Shown: one piece after another, positions 18,511 to 63,509 of the stretch | Layout: the number at the start of each line of letters is the position of its first letter | Numbering within the stretch: position 1 is the first letter of the stretch | Assembly: GCA_963768715.1 (NCBI GenBank) | Contig: CAVYJC010000007.1 | Location: 79,466 to 143,465, forward strand | From: an uncultured Bacteroidota bacterium | GTDB lineage: Bacteria > Bacteroidota > Rhodothermia > Rhodothermales > DATKEJ01 | Direction: 5' to 3' | Length of the DNA stretch: 64,000 nucleotides | Notes under the pieces: model-generated | The model's input: only the letters and a program-made list of their open reading frames with translations | Told to the model about the DNA's origin: nothing | Databases searched by the model: none | Program-made: the position numbers and the translations under genes

Positions 18511-18566
18511 CATTCTGCATTCTGAACTCTGAATTAATTCTTAATTCTTAATTATTAATTACTTGC
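18511..18566. repeat. AT-rich heptamer array (CATTCTG CATTCTG AACTCTG AATTAAT TCTTAAT TCTTAAT TATTAAT TACTTGC) abutting the HPS-like gene start
   Basis: Counted directly in a 7-nt register. Confidence 0.85.
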
Positions 18567-19261
18567 ATGCGTCCAGATCGTCCAAATATCCCTCGACGTC
18601 ACCTCCATCGACGAAGCGCTCGAAACGGCCGAAATGGCGCTGCGGGCGGGAGTTGACTGGCTCGAGGCCGGCACCCCGTTAATTATTGCGGAAGGCATGC
18701 ACGGTGTACGAGCGCTCAGAGACCGGTTCCCTGAAACTCCGATCGTTGCCGATCTGAAAACGATGGACGGCGGCTGGCTCGAGGCCGAAATCATGGCGAA
18801 AGCCGGCGCGACCCAGGTGGTAGTTATGGCCAGGGCTCATGAGGAGACCATCCGTTGCGTCGTACAGGCGGGCAAGGACCTCGGCGTGGAGGTCATGGGC
18901 GACAATCTCGGCTCTGAAGACATGATCGCCGGCGCCAAGCGTCTGGAAGATTTCGGGATGCGACTACGTGATTCATCACATCGGATACGACGAGCGTCGC
19001 GGCATCGCTAAACGAGGCGAGCCGGCCCCGAATCCCCTCGACCAGCTTCGCGAGATCGTCGAAGCAGTCTCCGTGCCCGTACAGGCCGTGGGTGGATTGT
19101 CGATCGAGCAGGCGGTTGCGACCCCCTCCTACGGCGCCCCGCTCGTAGTGCTCGGCGCCCCACTGGTCATCGATGCCGATGCATTTCGAACGGCTTCCGG
19201 CAACGTCGAAGACTCCCTCCGACTGATTTGTCAGAAAGTCCACGCGTACGGAGACGTTTGA
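18567..19261 (+). pseudogene. 3-hexulose-6-phosphate synthase / 3-keto-L-gulonate-6-P decarboxylase family gene, disrupted by two apparent 1-nt frameshifts (or sequence errors)
   Basis: The conserved N-terminus VQIVQISLDVTSIDEALETAEMALRAGVDWLEAGTPLI is in the frame of ORF 18634..19011. It has no in-frame start after the stop at 18556, and the ATG at 18567 is one base out of frame. The C-terminal half (DYVIHHIGYDERR...) is in the frame of ORF 18968..19261. The switch is near 18956-18962. Confidence 0.6.
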
Positions 19262-44354: not shown

Positions 44355-45923
44355 ATGGAATCTGAATCCGCCCAAACTGACGGCACGAACGAGACGGGAA
44401 ACCAGACGATCGTCATCGATCATCTCTTCGGGTTCCATCGCGGATCCCGGCAGCTCGTGGCCGGAGACCGGATCACTATCGGATCGTCATCAAACGCTAC
44501 GATCCACTTCCCGGCCGCCCATGAGCCGGCCGTCGCACCCCACCACGCTGCGATTGTCCGCCACGACGGCGTCTGCGAGCTCATAGTCGCGGACGGCGAG
44601 CATGCCCAAGTCAACGGAATCGAGACGACTCGGCACCTCCTGAGTTCTGGCGACGTCATCGTCGTCGGTGCGCACGGCCCGGTGCTGAGATTCCGCGTGT
44701 ATGATGGTATCCGAAATAAATACAAGACTATACCTGAAGCCATTGCCGATTGTCGGGACAGTGCAAGGCATCAGAAGAACTCCGTTGTCGGACGAGCAAT
44801 CGCCTTCATCAGGGCGATGCCTCATGAGATGCTTCGCCAGACAGCCCCGTGGACCAGAAAGATGTCCTTCGCCCTGACCACGCTGCTCGTCTTCAGTACG
44901 ATCTATCTCGTCGTTCGAAGCTTCCAATTGGCAGGGGAGCTAGACGAGCAGGCGGAGCAGGTCCTTTCGCTCATCCAAGCCAACGACGAATCGATGACCA
45001 ACGATGAGCTGCGAGTCCTCCAGAGTGAGCTGGAGTCGAAGCTCTCGACTACCCTTGAGCGTGTCGAGGCGCTCGAGGCACTGACGGCGGCAGGCAGGAA
45101 GGTCGTGGCCTCATCTGCCGAATCGGTGATGCTCCTCCAGGGTGAATACGGATTCGTCGGACCCGAAGGGCGGGAGCTCAGATTCGTTATCACCCCGGGC
45201 GGACAGCCGCTGATGGATCGCAAGGGGTATCCCGTCGTTCGCCCTGACGGCACGGGCGAACCGTACCGAAGTCAGTTTACCGGAACCGGGTTTCTGGTAA
45301 GCTCCGGAGGTCTGGTGATAACCAACCGGCACGTGGCCGCCCCGTGGGAATTCGAGCCCAGCGCCGTCGCCGTACTCAGCATGGGATACCAGCCGGTGAT
45401 GAACCGAATGATCGGATATTTCCCCAACGTCTCGAAAGCATTCGACATCAAGCTCGTCCTGGGTAGCTCTACCGAGGATCTGGCACTCCTGCGTTGCGAG
45501 GGCGACCCGAAAGACATCCCACCGCTCCAACTCGCTGACGCGTCCGTCTCCCCCGGCGACGAGGTCATCGTCCTTGGCTATCCGACCGGCATTCGGGCCC
45601 TCCTCGCTCGAACCGACCTGCACTTTGTGAATCAACTTCTCGAGGAGAGCAAGCGAGACTTCTGGTACATCGCAAGGCGTCTGTCTGAGGAGGGGCGCAT
45701 CGCACCGCTAGCCACGAGGGGAATTGTCGGCCAGGTAACCCCAACCGCCGTCGTTTACGATGCGGAAACGACACACGGAGGCAGCGGAGGACCCGTGATG
45801 TCCCTGAGCGGAGAGGTCGTGGCCATCAACACAGCGATCCTGACAGATTTCGGCGGTTCGAACCTGGGCGTCCCAGTCGACGCCGCCCGCCGCCTCCTCG
45901 ATCTGGCAACGCGGCCGGAGTGA
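44355..45923 (+). CDS. FHA domain - TM helix - coiled coil - trypsin-like (S1C/DegP-type) serine protease
   Basis: FHA region: ITIGSSSNATIHFPA...HAAIVRHDGVCELIVADGEHAQVNGIE...LSSGDVIVVG. TM helix: MSFALTTLLVFSTIYLVVRSF. The stretch ELDEQAEQVLSL...LESKLSTTLERVEALEAL is heptad-like. Protease triad contexts: TNRHVA, DLALLR and THGGSGGPV. Confidence 0.8.
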   Translation: MESESAQTDGTNETGNQTIVIDHLFGFHRGSRQLVAGDRITIGSSSNATIHFPAAHEPAVAPHHAAIVRHDGVCELIVADGEHAQVNGIETTRHLLSSGDVIVVGAHGPVLRFRVYDGIRNKYKTIPEAIADCRDSARHQKNSVVGRAIAFIRAMPHEMLRQTAPWTRKMSFALTTLLVFSTIYLVVRSFQLAGELDEQAEQVLSLIQANDESMTNDELRVLQSELESKLSTTLERVEALEALTAAGRKVVASSAESVMLLQGEYGFVGPEGRELRFVITPGGQPLMDRKGYPVVRPDGTGEPYRSQFTGTGFLVSSGGLVITNRHVAAPWEFEPSAVAVLSMGYQPVMNRMIGYFPNVSKAFDIKLVLGSSTEDLALLRCEGDPKDIPPLQLADASVSPGDEVIVLGYPTGIRALLARTDLHFVNQLLEESKRDFWYIARRLSEEGRIAPLATRGIVGQVTPTAVVYDAETTHGGSGGPVMSLSGEVVAINTAILTDFGGSNLGVPVDAARRLLDLATRPE

Positions 45924-45928
45924 AAGAA

Positions 45929-45975
45929 ACCTGACAGGTTTTGAAAACCTGTCAGGTCTTGAAGCCCTGTCTGGT
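45929..45975. repeat. ACCTGWCAGGT element, cluster C (three 11-mers at 18-nt period)
   Basis: ACCTGACAGGT lies at 45929, ACCTGTCAGGT at 45947 and the degenerate CCCTGTCTGGT (9/11) at 45965. Spacers are TTTGAAA and CTTGAAG. Confidence 0.85.
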
Positions 45976-46833
45976 TTACGGCAGCGACTTCACCCGGTCC
46001 CGGAGTCGCTCCCATTCGGCCAGATAGCGCAACAGGTGCGCACCGTTCTGGCGAGCGCCCATCTCTCGCAGCAGCCTGCGGACGTTCTCCTGCTCCTCTT
46101 CGTACTCCTCCTCATCGAAGAACCCTCCGAAGTGCGCGAACCTGAGCCAAAGGAGATATGTGGTGACCGCATCGCACTCATTGTAGGCGACGATGTCGCC
46201 GAGTTTGCCCTCAAGCCAGCGATCGGCTACCTGCTGCCCATCGATCTCGAACTTGCCAGGGATACCCGACAGGGTCGTGAATTGATTGAGCGACGGTGCG
46301 CCGCGTCCCCAACCGCTGACAATGTCCATCAGATCGACGCTGCTTTCTGAGACCCGTGAAAAATAGTCGGGGCCCTCCCAGGGCTTGTCCGGTCGCTTTG
46401 CAAACGAGCCCGCCTCGATGCCATTCACAATCGCCCGCTGGATCAGAATCTTGATGTCCGCATTCATCGAGTTGAAACCGACTAGTTGCGGCTTCTTCTG
46501 ACCGACCGCATCGAGGAACCGCGAGATAATCTCCGCTTCCGATGCATTCTCGGGATCGGTGGGATCGTGCGGCAGCGAGACAAGAGTAAGTCCGACGCTC
46601 TTGTCGTCTCGTACGCGACGCTCAATCGCGGCGATGGAGACGATGCGACACAGCACCATCTTGAGAAACGGCCTGGGCTCCTCTTCGGTGCCCCCGCCCA
46701 TCGCCCACATATGCTCCATCACGGAGCGATCATCGAGATTGTCGTCGAGACCGTAAATCAGCTTGCCGGCTGTAGGATCGGGAACCCATTCGATATCGAA
46801 AGCCCAAACAGTCGGCTGTATCGTTTTAAACAT
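45976..46833 (-). CDS. DEDDy 3'-5' exonuclease related to the PolB exonuclease domain (COG3298 / DNA_pol_B_exo2-like)
   Basis: Exo I is WAFDIEWVPD, Exo II is VGFNSMNADIKIL and Exo III is YNECDAVTTYLLW. The start overlaps the upstream ATPase gene by 8 nt. Confidence 0.75.
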   Translation of the reverse strand: MFKTIQPTVWAFDIEWVPDPTAGKLIYGLDDNLDDRSVMEHMWAMGGGTEEEPRPFLKMVLCRIVSIAAIERRVRDDKSVGLTLVSLPHDPTDPENASEAEIISRFLDAVGQKKPQLVGFNSMNADIKILIQRAIVNGIEAGSFAKRPDKPWEGPDYFSRVSESSVDLMDIVSGWGRGAPSLNQFTTLSGIPGKFEIDGQQVADRWLEGKLGDIVAYNECDAVTTYLLWLRFAHFGGFFDEEEYEEEQENVRRLLREMGARQNGAHLLRYLAEWERLRDRVKSLP

Positions 46834-49525
46834 CTTCTTTCACTGTGGAGGTATCGTTAGCAAGTTCAATGAGTTGCGCCTCCACTACGGACTGAATTTC
46901 AGCGGCCAGCCACGGATGGCAGGTAAATACAAAGACCTGCCTGCGCGCCGCCAGGTCCTTGAGAATCTGATATCCGAGCATTCTGCGCTCCTGATCCCAG
47001 TTGACGAACACCTCGTCGAGAAATGCCGGAAGCCGCTCCTGATTTTCGTCGAGATGATCCATCAGGGCGAATCGGATGGAGAGGTAGATCTGGTCCCGCG
47101 TCCCCTGACTTAGAGACTCGTCAACGGTAATGGGAAAATGCGAAGCCTGCTCGAAAACCATGAGGTCGCCCGAGTCGTCCTGCAGCATGAGACGGACGTA
47201 GCGTCCGGCGGTAATCTTCGAGAGGTATCCGCTCGCTATGCGGATTACGTCGGGCTGGTGTCGAAATCTGAACTGCTGATCGGCGCGCCGGATGACGTTC
47301 GCAAGGAGCACGAGTTCGTCGCGTCGTCTCCGCGCATCGTCCATCTTCTCGTCGATAAGCGCAATCTCGCTTTCGACGTCCGCCACGGTCCGGTGCTTCT
47401 GCAGCTGTTGCAGCTGTGCGCGCTTTCGGGCGTGGCGAATGGATTCGAAATCGATCTTCTTGAGGATCTCGTCACGCTTCGCATCCCGTTCCATGCGCGC
47501 CGCCTCAGTGTACGAATTAAGTTCGTCGTCGGAGAGCTTGTCGATGTCGCTCACATAGTCTCGCCAGGTTGGATGATCCTGATCCAGCAAACTCATGTGG
47601 TGGTCAGCCATGATCTTGGACCTCCGCATCTCTTCGAGCTTCGCGGCGCCCTCCTCCTTGTCGCCGTCCCCAAGTTTTCGCAGAACGGCCTCAATCTGAG
47701 CGATTTGATCCTGCAGCGCCTGCTGATCGGATCGAATCCGTTCGCGGTCTCTGCGGAGCTTGAAAAGCCGCTGGCGCGCGTCCTCGGATTTTTGAATCCG
47801 ATCGTCTGCCTCCTCGAGACGATTCTCGAGCGCACTGACCGTCGTAAGCACGTCGAAATCATAGGGGACATCGACGGACTTCAGCAGCTGACGCATCTCC
47901 CGACGATTTGTATCGAGCAGATTGACGATCGTCCCAGCCCGTTTCGTGCGTTCACGCCGACGCTCGAAGAGCTGGTACAGCTGCAGCAATCGTGCGACGA
48001 GATCGCGGCCCGGTGTCTTCAGCTGGTCCTCTTTGACATGCAGCGGTGCGAGGAGTCGCGCGACCTCTTCGCGGTGCTCGGAGCAGCTCTGCTCTAGTCG
48101 GTCCAAGCCTAGAATAATCCTAGACTTACGCAGTCGACGCTGTTGACTGAGTGTCATTGCAAGCCAGATCACGCCTCCTATCGCGATGGCCACACCGGCG
48201 GCAATCATGAGATTTTGGGGCTGCATGATCCCGAAGGCTGCGACGACAATGCCTGCGAGCACGATCAGAATCGGAAATATGAACTTGCGGGAGCCCAATT
48301 GCGTTGCGAGATGCTGATCGCGAGCGCGTGCCGAGGCCAGTTTCTCCTCCGCATCCTCGAGCCGGAGAACATGGCTCCTGAGCTTTTCGGCTTCCATCGT
48401 CGGGATTTGCCTGAGCAGATCCATTTTGCCTTCAGGCGTGGCCAAGCTCTCAACGATGACGTTCATCCTGTAGCGGATCTCGCAAAGCTCGATTCCCACA
48501 CCTCTCAGGTTGGCGAGGTTGGCTTCATGCGCCCCGGCCCTTCTCGACCACGCGTGAATCTCGTCAGCATGCGTGAGGATGAGGTGGTCGTGGTCCTGTG
48601 CCGCTCCGCGTTCAAGCTCCCGCTCGTCCTCTTCTTCGGCGATATCGTCGATCTGCTTGCTGTACTCTTCGTCTCGTCGATGCCACTCGTCGAGAATCGC
48701 CACGGGATTCTCGGGGATACTGGAAAAGGACTCGACATTGTCGGATGCGCTCATCAGCCCTTTGATCTTACTCCAGCGCACGGCGATTGGCCCGATCCGA
48801 TCGTGATGCCGCATTACAGCCTGGAGTTGGACCTGTTCGTCTCGAAGCAGTCGAAGCTGTTCGGCATGCTGACGAACTTCGTCATTGAGCGTTTGGAGCT
48901 CCGACTCCCGTTCTCGGGATTGCGCGAGCTTTTCGACCCACTCGTCTCGCTCCTCACGAAGACGTTTCGACAACGGCCTGCCGCGTCGATCGTCGCGCCA
49001 TAGATCATTCGCCTCACGATCGAGCTCATCCAGCACCGATCGAGCGGATCTCAGAAAATCGAGATTGAAACCGGCGAGCAGCCGATCCTGCACGTCCGCC
49101 CAAGCACGATCCTTGAGGGCCGTCATATCGTGGAGATCGAGGGCATAGATAGCGTCGAAAACGCGGTGCGAAACAAACTCCGCCGCGGGAACGGGCTTGT
49201 TTCTCAGATCCATGTCCAGATCGCTCCCGTTCTGCAACCGCCCCTGGGGCGTTCGAGTCAGTCGTCGGGTGACCGACACCGTCTGGCCCGCGCCGAGTAC
49301 GAGATCCGCCGAACCTTCCAACGACGTACCGTCTCTCGGAGCGTAGCGGTGTGATTCAGGACTGGTAGGATAGATGCCGAACAGCATCGTCTGGAGAAAC
49401 TGGAAGAAGGTCGATTTTCCAGCTTCGTTTGGTCCGAGAATGACAACGAGGGCATTATCAATGTCCCGAATTTCTCGATCACGAAAGTGACCAAACGCCA
49501 TCAGTTTGCAGTCCCGGAAATACAT
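46826..49525 (-). CDS. SMC/Rad50-like AAA ATPase of the YhaN (SbcE, COG4717) type with two central TM helices
   Basis: Walker A is GPNEAGKSTFFQF. Long coiled-coil stretches flank the central FIFPILIVLAGIVVAAFGI / MIAAGVAIAIGGVIWLAMTL. The signature is LSQGTRDQIYLSIRFAL and Walker B is PAFLDEVFVNWD. Confidence 0.8.
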   Translation of the reverse strand: MYFRDCKLMAFGHFRDREIRDIDNALVVILGPNEAGKSTFFQFLQTMLFGIYPTSPESHRYAPRDGTSLEGSADLVLGAGQTVSVTRRLTRTPQGRLQNGSDLDMDLRNKPVPAAEFVSHRVFDAIYALDLHDMTALKDRAWADVQDRLLAGFNLDFLRSARSVLDELDREANDLWRDDRRGRPLSKRLREERDEWVEKLAQSRERESELQTLNDEVRQHAEQLRLLRDEQVQLQAVMRHHDRIGPIAVRWSKIKGLMSASDNVESFSSIPENPVAILDEWHRRDEEYSKQIDDIAEEEDERELERGAAQDHDHLILTHADEIHAWSRRAGAHEANLANLRGVGIELCEIRYRMNVIVESLATPEGKMDLLRQIPTMEAEKLRSHVLRLEDAEEKLASARARDQHLATQLGSRKFIFPILIVLAGIVVAAFGIMQPQNLMIAAGVAIAIGGVIWLAMTLSQQRRLRKSRIILGLDRLEQSCSEHREEVARLLAPLHVKEDQLKTPGRDLVARLLQLYQLFERRRERTKRAGTIVNLLDTNRREMRQLLKSVDVPYDFDVLTTVSALENRLEEADDRIQKSEDARQRLFKLRRDRERIRSDQQALQDQIAQIEAVLRKLGDGDKEEGAAKLEEMRRSKIMADHHMSLLDQDHPTWRDYVSDIDKLSDDELNSYTEAARMERDAKRDEILKKIDFESIRHARKRAQLQQLQKHRTVADVESEIALIDEKMDDARRRRDELVLLANVIRRADQQFRFRHQPDVIRIASGYLSKITAGRYVRLMLQDDSGDLMVFEQASHFPITVDESLSQGTRDQIYLSIRFALMDHLDENQERLPAFLDEVFVNWDQERRMLGYQILKDLAARRQVFVFTCHPWLAAEIQSVVEAQLIELANDTSTVKEDV

Positions 49526-49669
49526 GCTCCTCAGTGATCCTCCGCAAGTAATCGGGCTGCAGCCTCGGGGGCCAGGTGGGTGACGAGCTCCCTGAGGTAC
49601 AAATCGGTGTCGCTCGGCGTCGCTTCTGCGGCAGCTACCGGGACAGGCGCCAATTCCTGGAGCAACTCG

Positions 49670-50767
49670 TCATTCTTCTGCTAGCTCGTCGATCAGTTGG
49701 AGAACCTCTCCGAGTACGTGCTGCTGGTTTCTGTACTGGTCGAGGTTGACCGGCGGCATGATGTCGCGGCATACGACGGACAAATCGAGCACGCCGAGTC
49801 GCACACGAAGATCGGCGGCCAACTCCGACACATACTCCTCTCGAATAAGTTCAGATGCCATGGGGGTCGCACCCGACAGCACGATTCGGACCATCCGCTG
49901 GTCCGTTACGGCTGATCCGGCAACTGCCGAGTTGTACGCATCGACGACCCGACGCTCGAGCGACGATGCATCTCCGATCTCACTGAGGTCGTCGACGATA
50001 ACGTCTATCCATTCGACCTTATGAAACGGCATGAAAGTCGCGTGGACCTGGTCGTTGTCGATCACCACCAAGTATCCGCCGCGCGGTCCGCCTTCTTTCG
50101 GTGTCCTGCCTTGGATATTCCCCGAGTACTGGATGCTTCGGTCATCATCGACGCGCTGTCGTTCATGGATGTGGCCGAGCGCCCAGTAAGCGTATCCCTT
50201 CTTTTTCAGATCACCGGCCGTACAAGCCGCGTATCGATCGTGCGCGTCCACCCCGGAAGCCGTCGTAACCATGGCGTGCAGAACACCGACGGTAGGGAGG
50301 CTCATGTGCGCATCAGGAAAACGATCGGTCAGGTTGCGATCTTCGCGCTCGGACTCGTGGCCGGCACCTACAATGGCGGCAATCTCCTCGCCGTCGGACC
50401 TCAAAATGATCGACTCCGGCACGGCCGAACCGAAGTAGTGAAAAGACTCCGGCAAATCCATTCTCGACAACCTGGCGTTCGAACCACCTGGATCATGATT
50501 GCCGGCAGCATAGAACGTCGATATACCCGCTCTGTCGAGCCGCTCGATTTCCTGGATCAGGAATCGCTCCGTCGCGAAACTGAGCCGGCGTCCATCGAAC
50601 AGATCTCCCGCTATCAGCACGGCATTGACCTGTTCCTCGATGGCACAGGTCACCGCCTTCTGAAACGCAGCGCGTATTGCCTCCCTTAGCTGCCTCCGAA
50701 CCTCCTCCGATCGACAAAGGAAGGTCGTGTCCAGGTGAACGTCGGCTATGTGCAGCAGCTTGATCAT
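49670..50767 (-). CDS. SbcD/Mre11-like metallophosphoesterase (YhaO/SbcF type DNA repair exonuclease)
   Basis: MIKLLHIADVHLD starts at 50767. Also contains LIAGDLFD, AAGNHD, GVLH and ALGHIH. The C-terminus may continue to 49531 in another frame (see findings). Confidence 0.8.
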   Translation of the reverse strand: MIKLLHIADVHLDTTFLCRSEEVRRQLREAIRAAFQKAVTCAIEEQVNAVLIAGDLFDGRRLSFATERFLIQEIERLDRAGISTFYAAGNHDPGGSNARLSRMDLPESFHYFGSAVPESIILRSDGEEIAAIVGAGHESEREDRNLTDRFPDAHMSLPTVGVLHAMVTTASGVDAHDRYAACTAGDLKKKGYAYWALGHIHERQRVDDDRSIQYSGNIQGRTPKEGGPRGGYLVVIDNDQVHATFMPFHKVEWIDVIVDDLSEIGDASSLERRVVDAYNSAVAGSAVTDQRMVRIVLSGATPMASELIREEYVSELAADLRVRLGVLDLSVVCRDIMPPVNLDQYRNQQHVLGEVLQLIDELAEE

Positions 50768-50833
50768 GAACCTCCTCCCGTTCGGAAGAAAGGCCAAAAC
50801 AGGTGTTTCCGCAAACAATATTGTAGCGTCACC

Positions 50834-53077
50834 CTATCCATCTTGAAGAAGCTTTGCTGCTCGCTGAATCGAGTCCTTCGCGCGGTCGAGCGTTGCAGCC
50901 GCCACCACGACCTGGGCCTCCGCCTCAGACCACTGTCGTTGCTCAACGGCTTCCCTGACGCCAGGGATCGTCTTTACTCCGTATCCGGTGTAAAATCCGG
51001 GCGCATAAATCATGTGATGGAACCACGGCCGCCGCGGAAGTCCCTCCTCAATAAGCAAGTCCTGTTCGAGGTGCAGCAGAATGGCGTTCACGTCTTTGAT
51101 CGACCCGTCGTCCGATCGCTCGGCCCATTGCTGATACGTCTTATCGTATTCGACTGCCGCATCGTTCAGCCGGCGCAACGCATTTTCGAGGGGAGCGAAG
51201 TTGATGTGCGGCACGGGATCCTCCACTTTGGGCGGCACGCTCACTTTCGTCGGATCTGAAGTCAGCGTGTACACCCCATCCCGAATGAGGTCGTTCGTTC
51301 TGTCGGTCTCGGTTCTCATCTCCTCCGCTTCGTCTCTGATCTCCGTCAGATACGTGTCGACCTTGCCTGCCAGGGGTGAAAACGCCATGGGCAACAGGTC
51401 GGCCTGCGCGAGCCGCAACGTTGCCTTGCCTGCCAGATCGGCAAGAGTAGCTGTGTATTTGAATCCCGGATCGCCGTTCCGCTCGTAATGGGTGTAGGTA
51501 TCGTAGGCGGAATGATATGCACCCCATTCCGCCTCACCGGAAAAACCGAAATCCAGCGACGCTATGCCTGAATGCTGCAGGAAAGGCGAGTAATCGGATC
51601 CCGCTCCCAACGCGCCTATCGAGAAGCCTTCGGAAGGATCAAAATCCGTCGAGTTCATCCGCCTGAGGGCGAGCAATCGCTCGGCAACCGAGGCGTCGGT
51701 TTCCGGGTCGTCGACATCGCCCGCCAGTTCGGCGACGAACGCCTCGAGGGTGTGAGATCCTCCCGCGTTCAGATAGCCCCGGCTATTGCTGTCGGTGTTG
51801 ATGTACACCGCCACATGCTGCTTTAGCTCGGCTTCGTGCTGTTCGACCCACTCAGTAGAACCGATGAGTCCGGGTTCTTCTCCGTCCCATGCTGCATAGA
51901 CGATGCTGCGCTTCGGCCTCCAGCCGTCCTTGTAGAGGGACCCGACGACCCTCGCCTCTTCGAGAAGTGAAATGAGTCCCGAGATTGGATCGCGTGCTCC
52001 GAAAACCCAACCGTCGTGATGGTTTCCGCGCATGATCCATTGATCCGGATTCGTCGCTCCATCCAGCTGGGCAATCACGTCGTAGACAGGTTTTAACGAC
52101 CAGTCGAAGGCGAGTTTTAAGTGAACCACCGCCGGTCCCGGACCGACATGGTATGTGATGGGAAGACTCCCACGCCAATTCACCGGCGCTACCGGTCCCT
52201 CGAGCGCCTGGAGAAGAGGGAGCGCGTCGGCGTACGCAACCGGCAGCACAGGAATCTTCATGACGACGGGCGAAGTATCGACGGTAAGTCGCTCGGCGTC
52301 CTCCGTCGCGGCAACGTTCGGAGTGAGAGGATCACCCATGTACAACGGCATGTCGGCCACCGAGCCGCGTTGCGCGCCGTAATCACTTCGCATCGGACCT
52401 TTCGGATACGGGTCGCCCACGAAATACCCGTCGTCGTGAGGATCGGAGTACAGAATGCAACCCACCGCACCGTGCTCCGCAGCGACCTTCGGCTTGATTC
52501 CCCGCCACGAGCCACCGTAACGGGCGATTACGATCTTGCCCTTCACATCGACCCCCATTCTTTCCAGGTCTTCGTAATCTTTTGGTATTCCTTGATTTAC
52601 GTACACAAGACCGGCCGTCACGTCTCCGTCTGCAGAGTAGGCGTTGTACGTCGGAAGAGCCTCGTCGAGATATCGCGTTGAGGGGTCCTCTTTCAGCGGA
52701 GGCTCTTCGAGTTTCGCCGTGAATTTGGTCGGACTCACAAGGCGGAGCGATCGCTCGATCGGGACCGGAAAGAGCACCTGATAAGTGGCGATTTTCGTGT
52801 CGAAGCCCCACGAATCGAAGAGACTCTTCAGGTATTCGGCATTCTCCTTGTCGTAGGGCGAGCCGACGTGGTGAGGGCGTGCCGCAAGGTGTCGCAGCCA
52901 CTTTGCCGGCCCGTCTGTGGAGATCCGGTTTGAGAATTTTGTTTCGAGTGCCCGCTGATCCGCAACGCTCGCTGAACGAAAACCGATCAGGTGATCATCA
53001 TGCGTAACGGTCTTCGCCGAAGCGGCTGTCAGAAGGAACGCGATAAGCAATGCTCCGGAAGTCCTGTTCATCATCAT
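50834..53077 (-). CDS. M28-family metallopeptidase with PA and transferrin-receptor-like dimerisation domains (glutamate carboxypeptidase II-like), secreted
   Basis: Signal MMMNRTSGALLIAFLLTAASA. Also contains PA-domain-like GKIVIARYGG, RGNHHDGWVFGA, AAWDGEEPGLIGSTEW, GAGSDYSPF and YHSAYDT. Confidence 0.8.
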   Translation of the reverse strand: MMMNRTSGALLIAFLLTAASAKTVTHDDHLIGFRSASVADQRALETKFSNRISTDGPAKWLRHLAARPHHVGSPYDKENAEYLKSLFDSWGFDTKIATYQVLFPVPIERSLRLVSPTKFTAKLEEPPLKEDPSTRYLDEALPTYNAYSADGDVTAGLVYVNQGIPKDYEDLERMGVDVKGKIVIARYGGSWRGIKPKVAAEHGAVGCILYSDPHDDGYFVGDPYPKGPMRSDYGAQRGSVADMPLYMGDPLTPNVAATEDAERLTVDTSPVVMKIPVLPVAYADALPLLQALEGPVAPVNWRGSLPITYHVGPGPAVVHLKLAFDWSLKPVYDVIAQLDGATNPDQWIMRGNHHDGWVFGARDPISGLISLLEEARVVGSLYKDGWRPKRSIVYAAWDGEEPGLIGSTEWVEQHEAELKQHVAVYINTDSNSRGYLNAGGSHTLEAFVAELAGDVDDPETDASVAERLLALRRMNSTDFDPSEGFSIGALGAGSDYSPFLQHSGIASLDFGFSGEAEWGAYHSAYDTYTHYERNGDPGFKYTATLADLAGKATLRLAQADLLPMAFSPLAGKVDTYLTEIRDEAEEMRTETDRTNDLIRDGVYTLTSDPTKVSVPPKVEDPVPHINFAPLENALRRLNDAAVEYDKTYQQWAERSDDGSIKDVNAILLHLEQDLLIEEGLPRRPWFHHMIYAPGFYTGYGVKTIPGVREAVEQRQWSEAEAQVVVAAATLDRAKDSIQRAAKLLQDG

Positions 53078-53200
53078 GTATCGGTGGGTCTGGTTAGCAA
53101 ATGGAAGATATCACCTGTCGCGATCGTGTGCCGCTCGGATAAAGCCGGGAACGCGCTCCAATCGTACGAATAGAACCGGCACCCAAGCCGGAAGCCTCGC

Positions 53201-53560
53201 ATGTCTCGAGATAAAGCCCAAACTCCAACCCGCGTAACCGTCAATAATGCGGAACAGCAGCTCACGATCGACTGGGCGGATGGACACGTGTCGACCTACT
53301 CGCTCGACGGTCTGCGGCGGGCTTGTCCCTGTGCAGGATGTCAGGGTGGACATGAGCAGATGGGCAAGCTCCCCGATCCCGAAGTCTTTCTGGTTCCCCC
53401 GCTGATGCGCTGGGAATCGCTCAAGCTGTTGCCGGTCGGCAATTACGCGATTCGGTTCGTTTGGGATGATGGTCACGACGCCGGCATCTACAGTTGGGAA
53501 CGTCTGCGCAGGATGTGCCCATGTCCTTCTTGCCTCGAGTACTGGCGAATTCACGGTTAG
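53201..53560 (+). CDS. DUF971 protein (gamma-butyrobetaine hydroxylase N-terminal-like, zinc-binding)
   Basis: Contains L.IDWADGHVSTYSLDGLRRACPCAGC...NYAIRFVWDDGHDAGIYSWERLR..CPC..C. Confidence 0.7.
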   Translation: MSRDKAQTPTRVTVNNAEQQLTIDWADGHVSTYSLDGLRRACPCAGCQGGHEQMGKLPDPEVFLVPPLMRWESLKLLPVGNYAIRFVWDDGHDAGIYSWERLRRMCPCPSCLEYWRIHG

Positions 53561-53627
53561 TGAGAAGAAGGGAATCGAGGGCAGCAAATCCACGTTGGCG
53601 GGTCCTATTTGAGAAGCGGGCTTGAAA

Positions 53628-56600
53628 TCAGTCGATGGGTACGTACCGGCCGAGGTGCGTGAGCCAGAGCCCTTTCGCAGCAACCGGTTCGCCCGTAATT
53701 CTCGACCAGTGGTCTGCGTACGCGGCCACCTGTTCGCGGTAGCGATCTTTCACGCGCTCCACCTCGTTTTCGTTTTCTGCAGCGTCGGTCTTGAAGTCGA
53801 TGATTTTCCACCCTGCGGCCGTCCGGAAAAGAAGATCGATCCGACCGCGAACGATCGAAACCGGTTCGAGCGCACTGACGGCGGCGAAAGGCGCCTCAGT
53901 AAAGACTTCGCCCGATGACCGGAGCTCTCGAAACACCGCAGAGGAAGTAAATCCGACGACTGCCTCCTTCAGTGGCGCCCGGAACTCCTGGGGGATACTC
54001 ACTGCTGCGTATTGATCGAACATCGACATGTCACCGCCGAAAACATCGCGAATCACCAAATCCAGCGCTTCGTGAACAAACGTTCCGTAGTCCGCTCCGC
54101 GGCGTTCACCGCTCAACGGAATGAACTCTTCCTCTTCGGCGGTTGAAACCGTCTCGAGACCCCAACTCGATCGACGGATCGACTCGAATCGGAGTCGCCT
54201 CGTCTCACCGTCGGGCACTAGATGCGTGGCATCAGGCTCAGGCTGCGGCGCCGGAGGATCCTCGAACTCGGGAAGCTCCTCGACACGGCGCAGGTAGTCA
54301 TCGAGTTCCGACCATGAGCCGTGTCCTTTCTCTGAGACGGATACGACAAGCAGGTTTCGTGCGCGCGTGGCGGCGACGTACCGGAGACGCGTCTCCTCCG
54401 CATCCAGGAATCGCCGTTCTTCCGCCTCGTCGTCATCCCATCCTACCGGCTCAGCGATCGTCTTGGCCGAACGGCTGCCCTCGCGCCATTCGGAAACGGT
54501 CATGGAGAGGTATCGCGTCTCACCAAAACGATGGACGTGGAAGTCGGGTGCGATATTTCCGTAAGTCGAGTCGTAGGGATCGGCCAGAAAGACGACGTCT
54601 GCCTGTAGCCCTTTCGCCTGATGGAGATTCATCACGCGTACAGCGTCCGGCTCACCTGCCTCGAGGGTCATGCCGGCAATCTGGTAATCATCCTCATCCG
54701 TCAGCGCCCGCATCTCGCCCACGATCTCCACCCAGTGCATGCCTTGTCGCTCCCAGCGCCGGACGTTCGCCAGCAGCCGGACGAGGGCTCCGGCACGAGA
54801 CGAGCCTGCATCGTTCGCGGCAGCCGCAAACCACGGAATCACACCGAGTTCGTCAGCAAGCGTCTCCATCGCTGATGACGAAGTTCTCGTCTTGAATAGT
54901 TCCGCAGCACGGGCCAGTCGGTCAAAAGCACCGCCGACCTTTGCTCTCACATCTGGAGCCAGCCCGCTGGGAGGCCCGAGCGAAAAGTTGAAGCGGGCGC
55001 CCGCGTTGCGAAGTGCAAGCAGTTCGGGGTCAGAGCACCCGACTAACGGTCCACGCAAGTATCCGACGAGCGCCACGGGGTTCTCCGGATCCGCCGCAGC
55101 CTCCAGCATCTGAGTCAGGGCTGCGACCTCCTCCGACTGGCCCAAGTTGTTGCCACCCACCAGATCGTAAGGAATTCCTCTCGCTTCGAGCGCCCTGGCG
55201 TAGTCGTTTAAGTGCTTCTTGTTTCTCGTCAGGACCATAAAGCGGCCGTACGACACCCCGTCGTCGAGAAGTGCATCGTCGGATCCCGTAAACGCCGTCT
55301 TCCCGGAAACGATCGCCGCGATGCAGTTTGCGATGCGACGCGCGTCCTGCTCGACAACCAGCTCCCGACGCCCGAGATCCTTGGGGAATGAAATGCTGCG
55401 AACGCACAGTTCATCCGCCCCGTCTGGACGATACTGGAGGAGTCGCTCATACTCCGCCTGATATCGAGTCGGCTGCTCGCTGAAGATCGGATCGAACGTC
55501 TGATTTAACCAGTGACAGAGTTTGCCCAGTGAACGAAAACTGGTATTGAGTCGAACGATCGTTCCACCGGTCGCCTCGATACGATTCCGCACGAATCGAA
55601 ACGTGTCGACGTCTGCCCGTCGAAAGCGATAGATGGATTGCTTTTCGTCCCCTACGACGAAAAGACTTCCCGACCTGGGAGTGGCCAGTTGCCAGTCTGT
55701 CTCCTCCAGATCGTCGGCGGTGAGAAACATCAGCACTTCCGCCTGAATCGGATCCGTGTCCTGGAACTCGTCTACCAGAATCACTCGGTACTTGCTTTGG
55801 AAATAACCCCTGACCTCAGGAAAGTCACGCAGGATGTCGCGCGCCTTGATCAGCAGATCCTCGAACGTGACCGCGCCGGACAGACGTCTGCTTTCGGCGT
55901 AGTGCGTCATGGCATCATCCACAATGCCCGCCAGGAGTGTGAACAGGTATTGCTTCCAGCGTTTCAGGGAGGGTATGATGACGCTTTGCCGGAGCCCCGG
56001 TACCAACTCGCTCTTCAGGCGCCGGGCGAGCGTCGCATCCCTCCAGCCGTTCAGCGTGATGCCTCCTTTGTCGAGCGTGGTACTGTCAAAGAAACTCAGG
56101 TAGGCCGCCTGTTCGTCGACAGAATCCAGGCTGCGGTTCTCACGATACCGCTCAGCAAGCTGCGCGCACGATGTGAACTTGTCCCATTTCTCTCTCCCCT
56201 TGTCGTTGAGGAACGGAAGCACGGAGGTCACCAACTCCACAACCTGCCTGACGGCTTCCGCCAGATCGGGCTCCGGCACATCCGTCGGCTTGAGCTGCAG
56301 TTCGGGGAAACTGCATCTCCGTGAGTAGAATCCGTAGATCTTTTCCGTATTCAGCCGAATCTCCAGCAGGCGCTTCAGCCGAGCATCCCCCGCTCGGTGC
56401 CTGTCGTTCAAAAACGAGTTCCAAGCCTGCCGGCGTGCACGCGGCTCGTCTCGCTCATCGAGTTCCTTGAAATCGAAGGGCAGGCCTGCTTCGAGTGGAC
56501 GCTCCCTGAGGAGGCGGCTGCAGAAAGCGTGAATGGTGCCGATGAAGCACTGATCGATACGATCTGCGGCATTGCGAAGCAGCGTGGCACGCGGTCCCTC

Positions 56601-56891
56601 CGCCTGCACGGACTCTTCCTGCAGGCGCTCGTAGAAGCGACTTCGGAGCTCACCCGCCGCTTTTCGCGTGAAGGTAATCGCGACGATATTCCGGATGTCG
56701 AGGTCACTGCGCCCCAGCAGTCCGACCATTCGCTCGACCAACTCATGCGTCTTGCCGGCGCCCGCACCCGCGAGAACCATCATGTTTGCGTCGAGACGCT
56801 CTCGGATAATCAGTCGTTGGTCCTGATCCTCCGGGACCCTTGTATCCTGGAATAGAGGCAGCTGCATCTGTCCGTTCTGATCCGACATCAA
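53628..56891 (-). CDS. addA: UvrD/Rep-type helicase with C-terminal PD-(D/E)XK nuclease (AddA/RecB-like)
   Basis: Walker A is LAGAGAGKTHELV. Also contains VDEFQDTDP, SFRS and LHQAKGLQADVVFL. The C-terminal nuclease motif is GRIDLLF...WKIIDFKTD. Confidence 0.75.
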   Translation of the reverse strand: MMSDQNGQMQLPLFQDTRVPEDQDQRLIIRERLDANMMVLAGAGAGKTHELVERMVGLLGRSDLDIRNIVAITFTRKAAGELRSRFYERLQEESVQAEGPRATLLRNAADRIDQCFIGTIHAFCSRLLRERPLEAGLPFDFKELDERDEPRARRQAWNSFLNDRHRAGDARLKRLLEIRLNTEKIYGFYSRRCSFPELQLKPTDVPEPDLAEAVRQVVELVTSVLPFLNDKGREKWDKFTSCAQLAERYRENRSLDSVDEQAAYLSFFDSTTLDKGGITLNGWRDATLARRLKSELVPGLRQSVIIPSLKRWKQYLFTLLAGIVDDAMTHYAESRRLSGAVTFEDLLIKARDILRDFPEVRGYFQSKYRVILVDEFQDTDPIQAEVLMFLTADDLEETDWQLATPRSGSLFVVGDEKQSIYRFRRADVDTFRFVRNRIEATGGTIVRLNTSFRSLGKLCHWLNQTFDPIFSEQPTRYQAEYERLLQYRPDGADELCVRSISFPKDLGRRELVVEQDARRIANCIAAIVSGKTAFTGSDDALLDDGVSYGRFMVLTRNKKHLNDYARALEARGIPYDLVGGNNLGQSEEVAALTQMLEAAADPENPVALVGYLRGPLVGCSDPELLALRNAGARFNFSLGPPSGLAPDVRAKVGGAFDRLARAAELFKTRTSSSAMETLADELGVIPWFAAAANDAGSSRAGALVRLLANVRRWERQGMHWVEIVGEMRALTDEDDYQIAGMTLEAGEPDAVRVMNLHQAKGLQADVVFLADPYDSTYGNIAPDFHVHRFGETRYLSMTVSEWREGSRSAKTIAEPVGWDDDEAEERRFLDAEETRLRYVAATRARNLLVVSVSEKGHGSWSELDDYLRRVEELPEFEDPPAPQPEPDATHLVPDGETRRLRFESIRRSSWGLETVSTAEEEEFIPLSGERRGADYGTFVHEALDLVIRDVFGGDMSMFDQYAAVSIPQEFRAPLKEAVVGFTSSAVFRELRSSGEVFTEAPFAAVSALEPVSIVRGRIDLLFRTAAGWKIIDFKTDAAENENEVERVKDRYREQVAAYADHWSRITGEPVAAKGLWLTHLGRYVPID

Positions 56892-59800
56892 CCCTCCTCC
56901 ATCCAGTGTGCCAGTGCATCCATGAAATCAAGCTCGGCGTTGGGCACCCACATCTCAGAAAGATCCCGTTTTGTTTTCGACTCGGTTCCGCATACGGCCT
57001 TGAAATCACAGAACTTGCACTCGCCTCCCTTCTTGGTCACGTGGAGAAACGCACCTTTGCGGACAAGGCTGAATAGCGGCGCCAGAACATGGTTCATCTC
57101 AGCGCGATCCGGGGGTCTCTCAGCAATTCGCCTGCCGTTTTCGCGGTCACTGGCGAAATAGTAGCCGGAGCGCGTCACGCGCCCCGACAAACCCAGAGAG
57201 GACGCGAGCTCTTCCAGCGCGTAGGCGTAGAGCACCCACTGAAGATTCAGCCCGCCCCGGAGCAGCGATCCCTGATCAAAATCGTAACTGCTTCCGGTCT
57301 TGTAATCCCAGATGACCAGCGAGTCGTCGGGAAGTACGTCGACGCGGTCGACGCGCCCGCGGAGAAGGAAGTCGAGATCCTCACTCAATCGAATCCTCAC
57401 CGGCTCGACAAGTCGCTCACTTCCGGCATACTCCGACCCGAATACGAACTCGAAAAGAATCGGCCGGGTATCCGGATCGAGTGCCTCCGTTCTGAGAAAT
57501 GCCAGCGCCGACTCTTCGAGCCTCTTGCGCTCATACTCGTAGGCCGCCTGGTTATCGGGAGGAAATTGCTTGACGTACTGATCAACGAGTACGCCGAGCT
57601 GATCGAGGATCGGGCCACGGTGTCGTTCAAGATCGGGACGTTCGCCGCGCTCACTCAGATCCTTCAAGAAGTCGTGATAGAGATCGTGCAGGAGCGTTCC
57701 GAAATCACGCGGATCGAGCCAGCGCGTCGGGTTGGGCTGGTAATAGTCAGGCTTACGGATCCCCAGTTCATAATGCAGGAAATAGCGATAGGGACACGCC
57801 GCGAGTTTCTCCATCCGGTTGGGAGAGAACACGGTACCCCCGTTCAGACGCTCGATGGATACTCGGGACAAATCGAGCCGGCCGTCGAAATGTGAGAATA
57901 CCGGACTTCGTCTCGAATCGGCCGCAATACTTCCCTCCAGGAGCCAAGGGAAACGGGACGCAACGAAGTCCCGATAATCGCTTCTCCTGCGCTGTGGGAG
58001 CAGCACGCCCGTGTCTTCGATGTGAAAGGGGTGGGACGACAGCGCCGGAGGGCTCAGATAATCGGCGCCAAGGTTCTTTGCGACAGATTGAAAGAAGGGA
58101 GAGGGGTAAACAACCGTCTCTTCTCGTTCGGCATTGAACACACTGGTCCCAAAATAGACGTTTCCCGGCGCCATCCCGAGAGCTCGGACCAGGTGCCAGA
58201 TACGATCGGTCGCCTGCGACGACTTGAGGTCGAGGTTGGCGGAAAGCTTCGTGCGCTCCACATCGAGCAGGATGGGGTCTTCGGCCGCTCGTCCAGGAAA
58301 GTTGTCCACGTCCAGCCCGACGACAAACAGGTGCCTGCGGCCGCTGTAGGCCGCTCGCTCAATTGAAACAGCATGAAGTGAACCGGGACGCGCGGTGGAT
58401 GCCTGAACCGAGTGCCGCTCCACCATGTCGGCGGCAATCTGCAGCGCGAGACGCCTCGGCAATCGCGTGCCTCCTTCCCTGCCGTACTGGACGAAACGAT
58501 CGTTGAGCGACTCTACTGCACGCTCGTCACGTTCGCCGTGAACGACGGCGAATCTGGTCAGATAGTCGGCGCACAAGCCGGCCGTCTCCTCCGAACTGAG
58601 TGTGGATGCCGTCGGCACGATGTCGACCAACAACTGGATGCATCGCTGCAGCAAACGGGATCGTTTCTGGAATGGCGTCTCACCCGACTCCACGCCAGAC
58701 TGCTGTGACCGGGAACCCGCCAGCCGTTCCACGGCGGGAACGTAGCGCTCGATTCCTTCGTCGAGCACGGCGTGACGAAAATGAGCGGCGAGCGCCGGCA
58801 TGTCAGCAATCCGAACACCCTCCACCTCCCGATGAAAGCTCAGGATGCCCGCGTCCATCAGGGCGGCCAATTGCGGGGCCGGACAGCTCGCACCGATCCA
58901 TTCGAGGAAACCTTTCAGTCCAGCCCCGGGGCGCGTTAGTGTGGCGGCTACACCCTCGGCGAAACTGACGTCAAACTGAAATCGATCGGCAAGGTTGACT
59001 AGAGCTGGGACGTATATCGGTCCGCTCGAGTAGGCAATTTCGACGTCGTCGAGCGGAAGATCGCATTCAAGGCAGAATCGTATTACGTCTCCCACTTCCG
59101 CTTCCGGTCCCCTGGCGCCGAACACGCGTACAAGATCCTTCTCTTGTTGCTCGATGCCGCGGTTCTTCACAAAAGCGGCGGCGCCGATTCGCCCACCCGC
59201 GGGCGGCGCCGAATCGAGGAAAGATGCGCCCACGGTCGCCGGTATTGGGACGCCATAGTCGGCCCTGCCAATTCGGATCAGCCTTTCGCCAAAAGTTTCC
59301 CCCAAGTATCGAAGGCTGCGGCGCGTCATCGGCATCTCGTCCAACACCGCGGCTACGCCATCGACCTGGTGCGACGTGGAGGCTCGGATGGCATAGTCGA
59401 GGACATACGCAGAGTCGTACAGTCCTCGTTCACTCATCACTGAATCGAGTCTGCCGAGGAGGTAGGCCAACGCTTTTGTCTTCTCCGTCCGAACGGGACC
59501 GGTCTTCAGGTCCTTCATCGTGATGCCCGCCATTCGAAGGGCTTGGAGCGTCTCCCAAACGGATCGTGCCAGCGAAGGCGTAACTCCAACCGGCTCGAAG
59601 TAACTGCTGGCATCACGTTCCTTCAGCTCTCGCAGCAGATCGGCTGTCACGGCGACCGCAACGTCGTTGTGCAACGGCCGGAGGCCTTCGGCCCGAAGCC
59701 TTGGTTCGAATCGCCGCTCGGCATGCTCCCGAGCCGACAGCGCCTCAAAATTGACCCAGTCGACGCCTTCCCTGGTGAGCGCCGTCAGGAGGTTGTATCC

Positions 59801-59908
59801 AACCTGACCGCTAGCCACGAACAGGTATTTCGGCGCCGTCGGGTGTTCCCCGCAGAGCGTCGCAAGTTGCGAAAGGTGATAGGGCAGCGGATTCGTCGGG
59901 TCAATCAT
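56888..59908 (-). CDS. addB: AddB-like helicase-nuclease subunit (degenerate N-terminal ATPase, C-terminal PD-(D/E)XK nuclease with 4-Cys Fe-S cluster)
   Basis: The nuclease motif is GRVDRVDVL...LVIWDYKTGS. Cysteines lie in ACPYRYF and CKFCDFKAVC. There is a 4-nt ATGA overlap with the downstream addA-like gene. Confidence 0.7.
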   Translation of the reverse strand: MIDPTNPLPYHLSQLATLCGEHPTAPKYLFVASGQVGYNLLTALTREGVDWVNFEALSAREHAERRFEPRLRAEGLRPLHNDVAVAVTADLLRELKERDASSYFEPVGVTPSLARSVWETLQALRMAGITMKDLKTGPVRTEKTKALAYLLGRLDSVMSERGLYDSAYVLDYAIRASTSHQVDGVAAVLDEMPMTRRSLRYLGETFGERLIRIGRADYGVPIPATVGASFLDSAPPAGGRIGAAAFVKNRGIEQQEKDLVRVFGARGPEAEVGDVIRFCLECDLPLDDVEIAYSSGPIYVPALVNLADRFQFDVSFAEGVAATLTRPGAGLKGFLEWIGASCPAPQLAALMDAGILSFHREVEGVRIADMPALAAHFRHAVLDEGIERYVPAVERLAGSRSQQSGVESGETPFQKRSRLLQRCIQLLVDIVPTASTLSSEETAGLCADYLTRFAVVHGERDERAVESLNDRFVQYGREGGTRLPRRLALQIAADMVERHSVQASTARPGSLHAVSIERAAYSGRRHLFVVGLDVDNFPGRAAEDPILLDVERTKLSANLDLKSSQATDRIWHLVRALGMAPGNVYFGTSVFNAEREETVVYPSPFFQSVAKNLGADYLSPPALSSHPFHIEDTGVLLPQRRRSDYRDFVASRFPWLLEGSIAADSRRSPVFSHFDGRLDLSRVSIERLNGGTVFSPNRMEKLAACPYRYFLHYELGIRKPDYYQPNPTRWLDPRDFGTLLHDLYHDFLKDLSERGERPDLERHRGPILDQLGVLVDQYVKQFPPDNQAAYEYERKRLEESALAFLRTEALDPDTRPILFEFVFGSEYAGSERLVEPVRIRLSEDLDFLLRGRVDRVDVLPDDSLVIWDYKTGSSYDFDQGSLLRGGLNLQWVLYAYALEELASSLGLSGRVTRSGYYFASDRENGRRIAERPPDRAEMNHVLAPLFSLVRKGAFLHVTKKGGECKFCDFKAVCGTESKTKRDLSEMWVPNAELDFMDALAHWMEEG

Positions 59909-62219: not shown

Positions 62220-62684
62220 TCATTGTGCCGTGACCAACCGGCTGATCCGTTCGAGCTTTGCTGGACCGATTCCTTTGACCTTAATGAGATCCTCGATTCT
62301 GGAAAACGGCCCGGCTCGTTCTCTGTACTCAATAATTCTAGTTGCGAGCGCTGGACCAATTCCGGGTAGGGATATCAATTCCCTCAGACTGGCGTGATTT
62401 ACGTCCAGGAGTCCGTCGACGATGCTACCGAGCGTATCGGCACCGAGCGAGTCCAATTCGCCGGAGTGTTTATTCGGCTTCGGAAACGTATCCAGAGGCG
62501 TCAATCCGCCCGAAGCAATGAGTGAATCGAGCCCGGCATATATCTGGGGATCGAAGGGAGCCGTGTTTTGCTGCACGTAACGCCACGTAAACCCGACGAG
62601 GTAGAGTGAAGCAATAACAACGAGCGCCGCAGATTCAGTTCGCGTAAATGCCAGCCGTTCGGCCAGCCGCTTGAGTCTCTTCAT
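62220..62684 (-). CDS. comEA: ComEA-family DNA-binding protein (N-terminal anchor, tandem helix-hairpin-helix)
   Basis: Contains LDVNHASLRELISLPGIGPALATRIIEYRERAGPFSRIEDLIKVKGIGPAKLERI. Confidence 0.85.
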   Translation of the reverse strand: MKRLKRLAERLAFTRTESAALVVIASLYLVGFTWRYVQQNTAPFDPQIYAGLDSLIASGGLTPLDTFPKPNKHSGELDSLGADTLGSIVDGLLDVNHASLRELISLPGIGPALATRIIEYRERAGPFSRIEDLIKVKGIGPAKLERISRLVTAQ

Positions 62685-62750: not shown

Positions 62751-63509
62751 ATGATCGTTCGAACAGAAGCCGTTGCCTTGCGAAGCGTCGACTACGGAGA
62801 GACGAGCCAGATCGTGACGCTGTACACGAGGCGTCTCGGAACGGTCGCGGTAATGGCACGCGGCGCCCGCGGCGCAAAGAGTCGCTTCGGCTCAGCGCTT
62901 CAGCCAATGTCGCACCTGCAGGCCGTCTTTTATCACAAGCCATCTCGCGAAGTGCATTCCCTGAGCGAGGCGACGCACCTCACGGTGTTCAGGCAGATCC
63001 CGAGAGAAATCGATCGCCTCTCGCTCGGACTCCGCATCGTCGAAACAGTCAATTCGCTCATGCCCAGACCGGAGGCAAACGACGAGGCTTTCGACGTCAT
63101 TCTAGGAGTTCTTCGGCGACTCGACACTGAATCCGGACACTGGAAGAATCTACTCCCCTACTTTGAGCTTCAAGTCTCTGCATTTATGGGATTTGCCCCC
63201 CTCCTTGACAAGCCGCAAATCGAGGAGATTTCGGCGTCTGGCGGCTACCTGCGACTGGATGACGGGTGCGCGACAACGTCCAAACCGAACACACCCGCCG
63301 TGCCGGCCACCCGCCAGGCGATCCGCGCCCTCGGCGTCATGCTTCATACCGACATCGATACGATCATGCGCATGAACGTCCCGACGAACGTGCTCGACGA
63401 AGTGATCACGATCGTCGAAAGCTACCTCACCTACCACGTCGTCGATTTCCGGCAATCGAGGAGCAAGCGCGTCTTCGAAACCATGCGATCCGGCCTCGCC
63501 CGCGGCTAA
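62751..63509 (+). CDS. recO: DNA repair protein RecO
   Basis: The OB-fold N-terminus is TEAVALRSVDYGETSQIVTLYTRRLGTVAVMARGARGAKSRFGSALQP. The size of 252 aa fits. Confidence 0.85.
   Translation: MIVRTEAVALRSVDYGETSQIVTLYTRRLGTVAVMARGARGAKSRFGSALQPMSHLQAVFYHKPSREVHSLSEATHLTVFRQIPREIDRLSLGLRIVETVNSLMPRPEANDEAFDVILGVLRRLDTESGHWKNLLPYFELQVSAFMGFAPLLDKPQIEEISASGGYLRLDDGCATTSKPNTPAVPATRQAIRALGVMLHTDIDTIMRMNVPTNVLDEVITIVESYLTYHVVDFRQSRSKRVFETMRSGLARG

Follow-up and report, generated by a model that had tools for sequence, protein, structure and literature searches.

A predicted SbcF/SbcE-type nuclease-ATPase pair adjoined by a PolB-like exonuclease gene in one Rhodothermales lineage

Does a repair module of the SbcF/SbcE kind need a dedicated 3'-5' exonuclease as a third component? 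The question is raised by three co-directional minus-strand genes, encoding a Mre11/SbcD-like phosphoesterase, a Rad50/SMC-like ATPase and an exonuclease, in a 64,000-nucleotide (nt) stretch of contig CAVYJC010000007.1 from an uncultured Bacteroidota bacterium (hereafter the window). A sequence-only reading of this DNA had likened the genes to the Bacillus subtilis operon yhaO-yhaN-yhaM, with a non-orthologous nuclease in third place, and had taken this to imply that the need for a partner with 3'-5' exonuclease activity is conserved. The open reading frames (ORFs) lie where that reading had placed them and carry the motifs it named, and its three domain assignments hold (Pfam matches to Metallophos, PF13514 AAA_27 and PF10108). 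The wider claim is not supported: we favour, with a probability of about 0.6, a two-gene SbcF/SbcE-type repair core with a lineage-specific PolB-like exonuclease as passenger or accessory of the operon, and the locus is a lineage-restricted variant of a known, poorly characterised repair module. SbcEF, a fourth SMC-like repair system, is little understood and tends to be regarded as a trait of Firmicutes, the only group in which a 2019 survey analysed it (PMC6452273).

The exonuclease gene (45976..46833, minus strand; 285 amino acids (aa)) directly follows the ATPase gene (46826..49525, minus strand; 899 aa), and the two share an 8-nt start/stop overlap, ATGTTTAA, at 46826..46833 on the minus strand, as the sequence-only reading had noted. 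We scored this linkage in two sets of loci by running in-house profile hidden Markov models over six-frame ORFs. The exonuclease-seeded set, built from alignment A1, comprises 80 species-representative genome loci (the best 80 of 492 genome matches) and 5 added by look-up; the ATPase-seeded set, built from alignment A3, comprises 80 metagenome loci (the best 80 of 335 metagenome matches) and 8 added by exact look-up, 88 in all. Several of the sampled loci are near-duplicates. Exonuclease-seeded loci came from Acidobacteriota, Planctomycetota, Myxococcota, SAR324, Pseudomonadota and other groups, and the exonucleases retrieved with A1 are 53-60% identical to the window protein, except for one Rhodothermales sequence (L006) at 80%. 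No ATPase or phosphoesterase gene was found near the exonuclease in any of the 72 exonuclease-seeded loci with at least 1 kb of upstream sequence, 61 of which have at least 3 kb. Seen from the other side, 71 ATPase-seeded loci extend 900 nt or more past the ATPase gene, and 67 of them lack the exonuclease. When all ORFs within 4 kb of the exonuclease were clustered across the 85 loci, no neighbour conserved across phyla emerged; synteny was within lineages only, with an EEP-family protein, RidA and a glycosyltransferase.

A PF10108 gene does stand behind the ATPase gene in L006, L086, L090-L094 and L096, whose ATPases share 72% identity or more with that of the window, and the 8-nt overlap recurs wherever both gene ends are annotated (L086 and L090-L093). 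The arrangement is shared by a sister group (L095 and L174) with 49% ATPase and 63-66% exonuclease identity, in which a spacer of about 100-130 nt with short tandem repeats separates the two genes. The repeats are AACCCAAT/AACCGAAT units in L174 (2054-2185) and three copies of ATACAGAA in L095 (about 3530-3632). Outside this narrow Rhodothermales clade the three families essentially do not co-occur, which is the outcome that the sequence-only reading had named as refuting its proposal. Among the loci examined, the exonuclease linkage is thus confined to one Rhodothermales clade; it is a variant of the operon local to that group and no machine of three components with wide conservation.

What follows the ATPase gene elsewhere bears on the same point. 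An alpha/beta hydrolase gene, often overlapping the 3' end of the ATPase gene, takes this position in 16 loci (L148, at 10484-11428, and 15 others, for example L123, L132, L141 and L168), so an overlapping downstream gene need not be a nuclease. The pair in the alpha/beta-hydrolase lineage is also flanked by a gene for a large NAD-glutamate dehydrogenase, as it is in the Longimicrobiales locus L089. Other co-directional genes after the ATPase encode a polysaccharide deacetylase, a nitroreductase, a HAD hydrolase, an N6-methylase and an FMN-binding protein. Clustering and Pfam searches gave no recurrent nuclease as third gene, and no third nuclease follows the pair of Paenibacillus or of Longibacter salinarum. 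Together with the two counts above, these non-nuclease genes speak against a conserved need for an exonuclease partner.

The phosphoesterase and the ATPase, by comparison, travel together. A phosphoesterase gene lies directly upstream of the ATPase gene in about 76 of the 88 ATPase-seeded loci; 11 of the 12 exceptions lack the call because the retrieved stretch begins at the ATPase gene, and the twelfth (L088) has the two genes in inverted order. Named sources of the pair include Rhodothermales/Rhodothermia, Longimicrobiales, Deltaproteobacteria, Myxococcota (Archangium, Sorangium), Planctomycetaceae and Actinomycetota, and the same pair occurs in Paenibacillus and Longibacter salinarum. By sequence and gene order, the two genes are a conserved module of the SbcF/SbcE type. 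In two Rhodothermia-type loci, L087 (471-10670) and L088 (1417-11854), AddB-AddA genes lie directly upstream of the pair or abut it; in the window, addBA-like genes are 2.9 kb away from it. We liken the addB-addA-nuclease-ATPase order of L087 to the addBA-sbcDC cluster of B. subtilis, with an SbcEF-type pair in place of sbcDC. One metagenome contig (L114) carries two phosphoesterase-ATPase pairs about 6 kb apart (1837-5783 and 11728-13760), with an N6-DNA-methylase gene after the first.

The assignment of the first two genes to the yhaO/yhaN (SbcF/SbcE) type, which the sequence-only reading had proposed, rests in good part on the ATPase. Its score for PF13514 AAA_27 is 65.2 bits (cut-off 22; E=8e-18), and Pfam also gives AAA_23 and SMC_N as matches. 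All but one of 120 listed homologues carry PF13514, and homologues are named YhaN by the Joint Genome Institute. Alignment A3 shows no variation in the Walker A, signature, Walker B and H-loop columns, and the family profile matches the Rad50 head 3qf7 (E=7e-12). An AlphaFold2 model (predicted local distance difference test score (pLDDT) 85) shows a split ABC head, long helices and, at the centre, a pair of hydrophobic helices (416-434 and 438-471) joined by a 3-residue turn, and its top Foldseek match is Rad50 7zr1 (E=3e-18). A literature search on the PF13514/AAA_27/COG4717 family returned nothing relevant.

The hydrophobic helices form a hairpin (aa 415-457; 48155..48283, minus strand) with Kyte-Doolittle peaks of 2.85 and 2.35, at the place of the Rad50 zinc hook. 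This agrees with the description of B. subtilis SbcE, whose central domain is hydrophobic and insoluble and lacks CxxC (PMC2811018). A central hairpin of this kind was found in 96 of 121 ATPase homologues, one of them a Bacillota protein, at 0.45-0.52 of the length, and is thus a family trait, not a peculiarity of the window locus. The membrane anchoring that the sequence-only reading had given the ATPase is predicted from this hairpin and does not set the locus apart. Long AAA_27 homologues of 1150-1420 aa (P0189, P0196, P0203, P0206 and others, for example from Sorangium, Actinomadura and Pseudonocardia) have no central hydrophobic hairpin and may constitute a soluble sub-family.

The window ATPase thus resembles B. 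subtilis SbcE (YhaN) in its Pfam family (AAA_27), COG4717 naming, Rad50-like architecture, hydrophobic central domain and lack of a CxxC hook, and the two systems also share a Mre11-like phosphoesterase gene directly upstream of the ATPase gene. They differ in that similarity to a Paenibacillus YhaN-type protein is confined to the heads (13% coverage), in the linkage of the pair to addBA in Rhodothermia-type relatives, and in the third gene, which encodes a PF10108 DEDDy exonuclease and not the HD/OB-fold YhaM. The study of B. subtilis SbcE reports that it interacts with SbcF, and describes sensitivity to double-strand breaks, impaired transformation and foci at the poles of competent cells (PMC2811018). 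SbcCD/Mre11-Rad50 systems are comparable in the Rad50-type head and coiled coil, with Rad50 the top fold match, and in a nuclease with all the phosphoesterase motifs and a family profile that matches Mre11/SbcD structures. They differ from the window proteins in the apex of the ATPase, which here has a hydrophobic hairpin and no zinc hook, and in the phosphoesterase scores, which fall well below the NCBIfam cut-offs.

The best matches to these SbcD and Mre11 models score 62.7 bits (cut-off 600) and 55.7 bits (cut-off 77.65), which places the protein in a subfamily related to, yet distinct from, canonical SbcD/Mre11. Read from the ATG at 50767, the phosphoesterase gene (49670..50767, minus strand; 365 aa) carries the motifs DVHLD, GDLFD, GNHD and GHIH and a Metallophos domain (E=4e-12, Pfam). 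The motif columns are invariant in family alignment A4, and the family profile matches Mre11 1ii7 (E=2e-19) and the E. coli SbcD structure. The phosphoesterase partner of a Paenibacillus AAA_27 gene and its Rhodothermales counterpart share 33% identity (E=1e-41), which adds to the case for a yhaO/yhaN-type pair.

This gene also revealed a newly recognised frameshift. In relatives 76-97% identical, the phosphoesterase is 410 or 411 aa long and stops 5 nt before the ATPase ATG. The window gene has one extra A relative to 97%-identical relatives, at about 49673/49674 (49673..49674, minus strand; GAAGAATGA against GAAG-ATGA), seen in a DNA alignment with L090, L091 and L086 and in three-frame translation. 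The 1-nt insertion brings in a premature TGA at 49672-49670, which cuts off a 46-aa C-terminal tail. The tail persists out of frame at 49531..49669 on the minus strand (frame-1 translation NDELLQELAP...YLRELVTHLAPEAAARLLAEDH), and can still be read in the +1 frame until 5 nt short of the ATPase ATG, so that the apparent 144-nt gap between the two genes is not intergenic but the frameshifted 3' end of the phosphoesterase gene. The lost stretch (DELLxxLAP...YLRSLLxxLDxEAAxRLL) is conserved across 24 homologues.

The frameshift gives rise to the best-surviving alternative, namely that the module is decaying in this genome and that loss of the ATPase-docking tail leaves a complex that is non-functional or altered. 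The C-terminal helix-loop-helix of Mre11 is known as the Rad50-binding domain, and entry 3qku, 'Mre11 Rad50 binding domain in complex with Rad50', is among the fold matches of the ATPase model. By this analogy the insertion, if real, would probably cost the phosphoesterase its docking on the ATPase, and both the conservation of the tail and the comparison with three relatives favour a true lesion. Against decay, the out-of-frame tail is near-identical to that of the relatives and has no further damage, as would be expected if the extra A were an error of sequencing or assembly, or had arisen very recently, and the ATPase and exonuclease genes are intact. We regard decay as a possibility of lesser weight, doubtful on this evidence.

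A second alternative concerns the exonuclease itself, whose identity is clear. It matches PF10108 (DNA_pol_B_exo2, COG3298) with E=9.4e-59 and 199 bits against a cut-off of 24, which upholds the earlier call of a DEDDy exonuclease unrelated to YhaM. It carries the motifs FDIEW, NSMNAD and YNECD, and a 24-sequence alignment spanning many phyla shows no variation at D13, E15, D126, Y217 and D221. Its AlphaFold2 model (pLDDT 92.7) has as best Protein Data Bank fold matches the exonuclease domains of Pol epsilon and archaeal PolB (Foldseek, E=1e-6 to 1e-5). Sequence search gave no solved PF10108 structure, only weak PolB matches. Sequence and model together make 3'-5' exonuclease activity putative for the window protein.

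PF10108 proteins look autonomous. Almost all consist of a single domain, and no second Pfam domain turned up in ten representatives of greater length (376-511 aa). A literature search found no biochemical study of a PF10108 member and one studied member, Campylobacter jejuni Cj1132c (WlaX), which was pulled down on DNA together with SSB and whose deletion lowers the spontaneous mutation rate (PMC4611032). Cj1132c resembles the window protein as a stand-alone PolB-like DEDDy protein of the same Pfam family tied to DNA maintenance, and differs in that its paper mentions no link to an SbcEF-like module (PMC4611032). We also noted unannotated PF10108 homologues, 30% identical to the window exonuclease, in NZ_CP119142.1 and NZ_CP119140.1, which are 2.17-Mb Neisseria gonorrhoeae records in the plasmid collection and evidently chromosomes.

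Could the exonuclease nonetheless be a true third partner of an SbcEF-like complex, a non-orthologous replacement of YhaM in a machine that needs a dedicated 3'-5' exonuclease? Its DEDDy site is intact, the 8-nt overlap, kept in at least five relatives, implies coupled translation, and the adjacency persists in the sister clade. YhaM is comparable in position, its 3'-5' exonuclease gene lying directly downstream of yhaN, but its HD plus OB fold is unrelated to the window exonuclease, and no YhaM gene follows the Paenibacillus pair examined. The premise is itself weak, since in the SbcE paper YhaM figures as a presumed exoribonuclease and is not shown to be a partner (PMC2811018). Further against such a partnership are the absence of the association from every lineage examined outside the one Rhodothermales clade, the unrelated enzymes (such as the alpha/beta hydrolase in 16 loci) in the same, sometimes overlapping, position elsewhere, and the Paenibacillus and Longibacter pairs without a third nuclease. 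Nor has the clade exonuclease diverged further or gained insertions, as might be expected had it adapted to a new partner: it is 55.6% identical to other orthologues, which are 57.4% identical among themselves, so that by this sequence measure it appears to show no sign of specialisation. We consider a true third partner improbable. The narrower proposal, that the exonuclease was recruited in this Rhodothermales lineage as a translationally coupled third subunit of a membrane-tethered SbcEF-type machine, seems to us similarly unlikely; if true, it would provide dedicated 3'-tail trimming at membrane-proximal DNA ends, together with AddAB.

The sequence-only reading had left open a defence role against phages or plasmids, in which the three genes would make up a system of SMC-like ATPase and nuclease such as Lamassu, Gabija, Wadjet or PARIS. 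This is very improbable and was rejected, as PADLOC, PHROGs, phage and plasmid searches gave no support. What favours it is a weak PADLOC match of the ATPase to mad3 (E=3e-8) with P-loop-only matches to AriA, LmuB and GajA, JetABC and Lamassu structures far down its fold-match list, and GmrSD or methylase genes beside the pair in L088 and L114. Weighing against it, the exonuclease matched no PADLOC model, the phosphoesterase matched one at E=0.005, and neither the phosphoesterase nor the ATPase had a full-length match; PHROGs returned generic SbcC, SbcD and exonuclease similarity only. The best fold match of the ATPase is Rad50, the pair is syntenic with housekeeping genes across phyla, and the base composition of the three-gene region is uniform with its surroundings. 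Phages almost entirely lack the exonuclease family (one weak match in 50,697 records), and plasmids seldom carry it (ten matches in 72,556 records). The preference of the sequence-only reading for repair over defence is upheld: AddB-AddA immediately precede the pair in two Rhodothermia-type relatives and stand 2.9 kb from it in the window, which also contains recO and a comEA-like gene. In L088, the stretch that closely follows the pair (12120-18592) comprises a GmrSD_N gene, two N6/N4 methylase genes and a gene for a MjaI-type restriction enzyme, which looks like a defence island adjoining a repair cluster.

For the two-gene core with an accessory or passenger exonuclease, we envisage the following. 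The Mre11/SbcD-like Mn-phosphoesterase would dock on the Rad50-like ABC ATPase, whose antiparallel coiled coil is predicted to end in the hydrophobic two-helix hairpin in place of a zinc hook. With this apex inserted in the cytoplasmic membrane, the ATPase heads and the nuclease would be tethered at its inner face. On the model of Mre11-Rad50/SbcCD and B. subtilis SbcEF, such a complex would use ATP to recognise DNA ends and cut them in double-strand-break repair, in Rhodothermia probably in the same pathway as the neighbouring AddAB. In one Rhodothermales lineage, the gene of an otherwise autonomous and very conserved exonuclease would have come to adjoin the ATPase gene, to be co-transcribed with the pair and, in the sub-clade of the window, translationally coupled to it. 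The exonuclease may trim 3' ends in the same pathway but would not be a defining component.

Several points weigh against this picture. Membrane insertion of the ATPase hairpin is predicted, and SbcEF function is known by experiment from Bacillus alone, through B. subtilis genetics (PMC2811018). The frameshifted phosphoesterase may leave the window module non-functional, unless the frameshift is a sequencing error. The 8-nt overlap is kept in all close relatives and the adjacency is kept at 49% ATPase identity, a pattern expected of real functional coupling. Flanking synteny is also kept in the closest relatives, however, so the adjacency is inseparable from simple shared ancestry.

The surroundings of the three genes in the window can be set out briefly. 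A gene for an M28 peptidase with PA and TFR-dimer domains (50834..53077, minus strand, by Pfam) is co-directional and lies 66 nt upstream of the phosphoesterase gene, a position that is also occupied in L090. It is followed upstream on the same strand by the genes of a helicase-nuclease pair, an addA-like gene (53628-56891; UvrD-helicase and PDDEXK_1 domains) and an addB-like gene (56888-59908; PDDEXK_1). The 550-nt stretch between addA and the peptidase gene (53078-53627) contains a plus-strand ORF of 119 aa (53201-53560), and a 119-aa GBBH-like_N gene occupies the counterpart position in L090; if the window ORF is such a gene, addBA and the three genes would belong to separate transcription units. 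Further upstream, some 11-12 kb from the phosphoesterase gene, lie a comEA-like gene with an HHH_3 domain (62220-62684, minus strand) and, divergent to it, recO (62751-63509, plus strand), both assigned by Pfam. Downstream of the exonuclease gene is a convergent FHA-trypsin gene. A promoter scan of 45700-53800 gave 0 promoter-like sites with a tool whose models leave out Bacteroidota-type promoters, and terminator-like sites in the same interval were at chance level only. The closest named homologues come from Rhodothermales metagenome-assembled genomes.

The exonuclease variant reveals no general rule about the module, and its value lies mainly in correcting the annotation and in tempering a three-component hypothesis. 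The comparison that yielded it suggests that the SbcEF-type pair, with its apparent membrane hairpin, is widespread beyond Firmicutes, and that it lies next to addBA in Rhodothermia-type relatives. Within the Rhodothermales clade, the exonuclease variant is a small, testable natural experiment and gives a rare hint, from gene context, at what the highly conserved but uncharacterised PF10108 family does.

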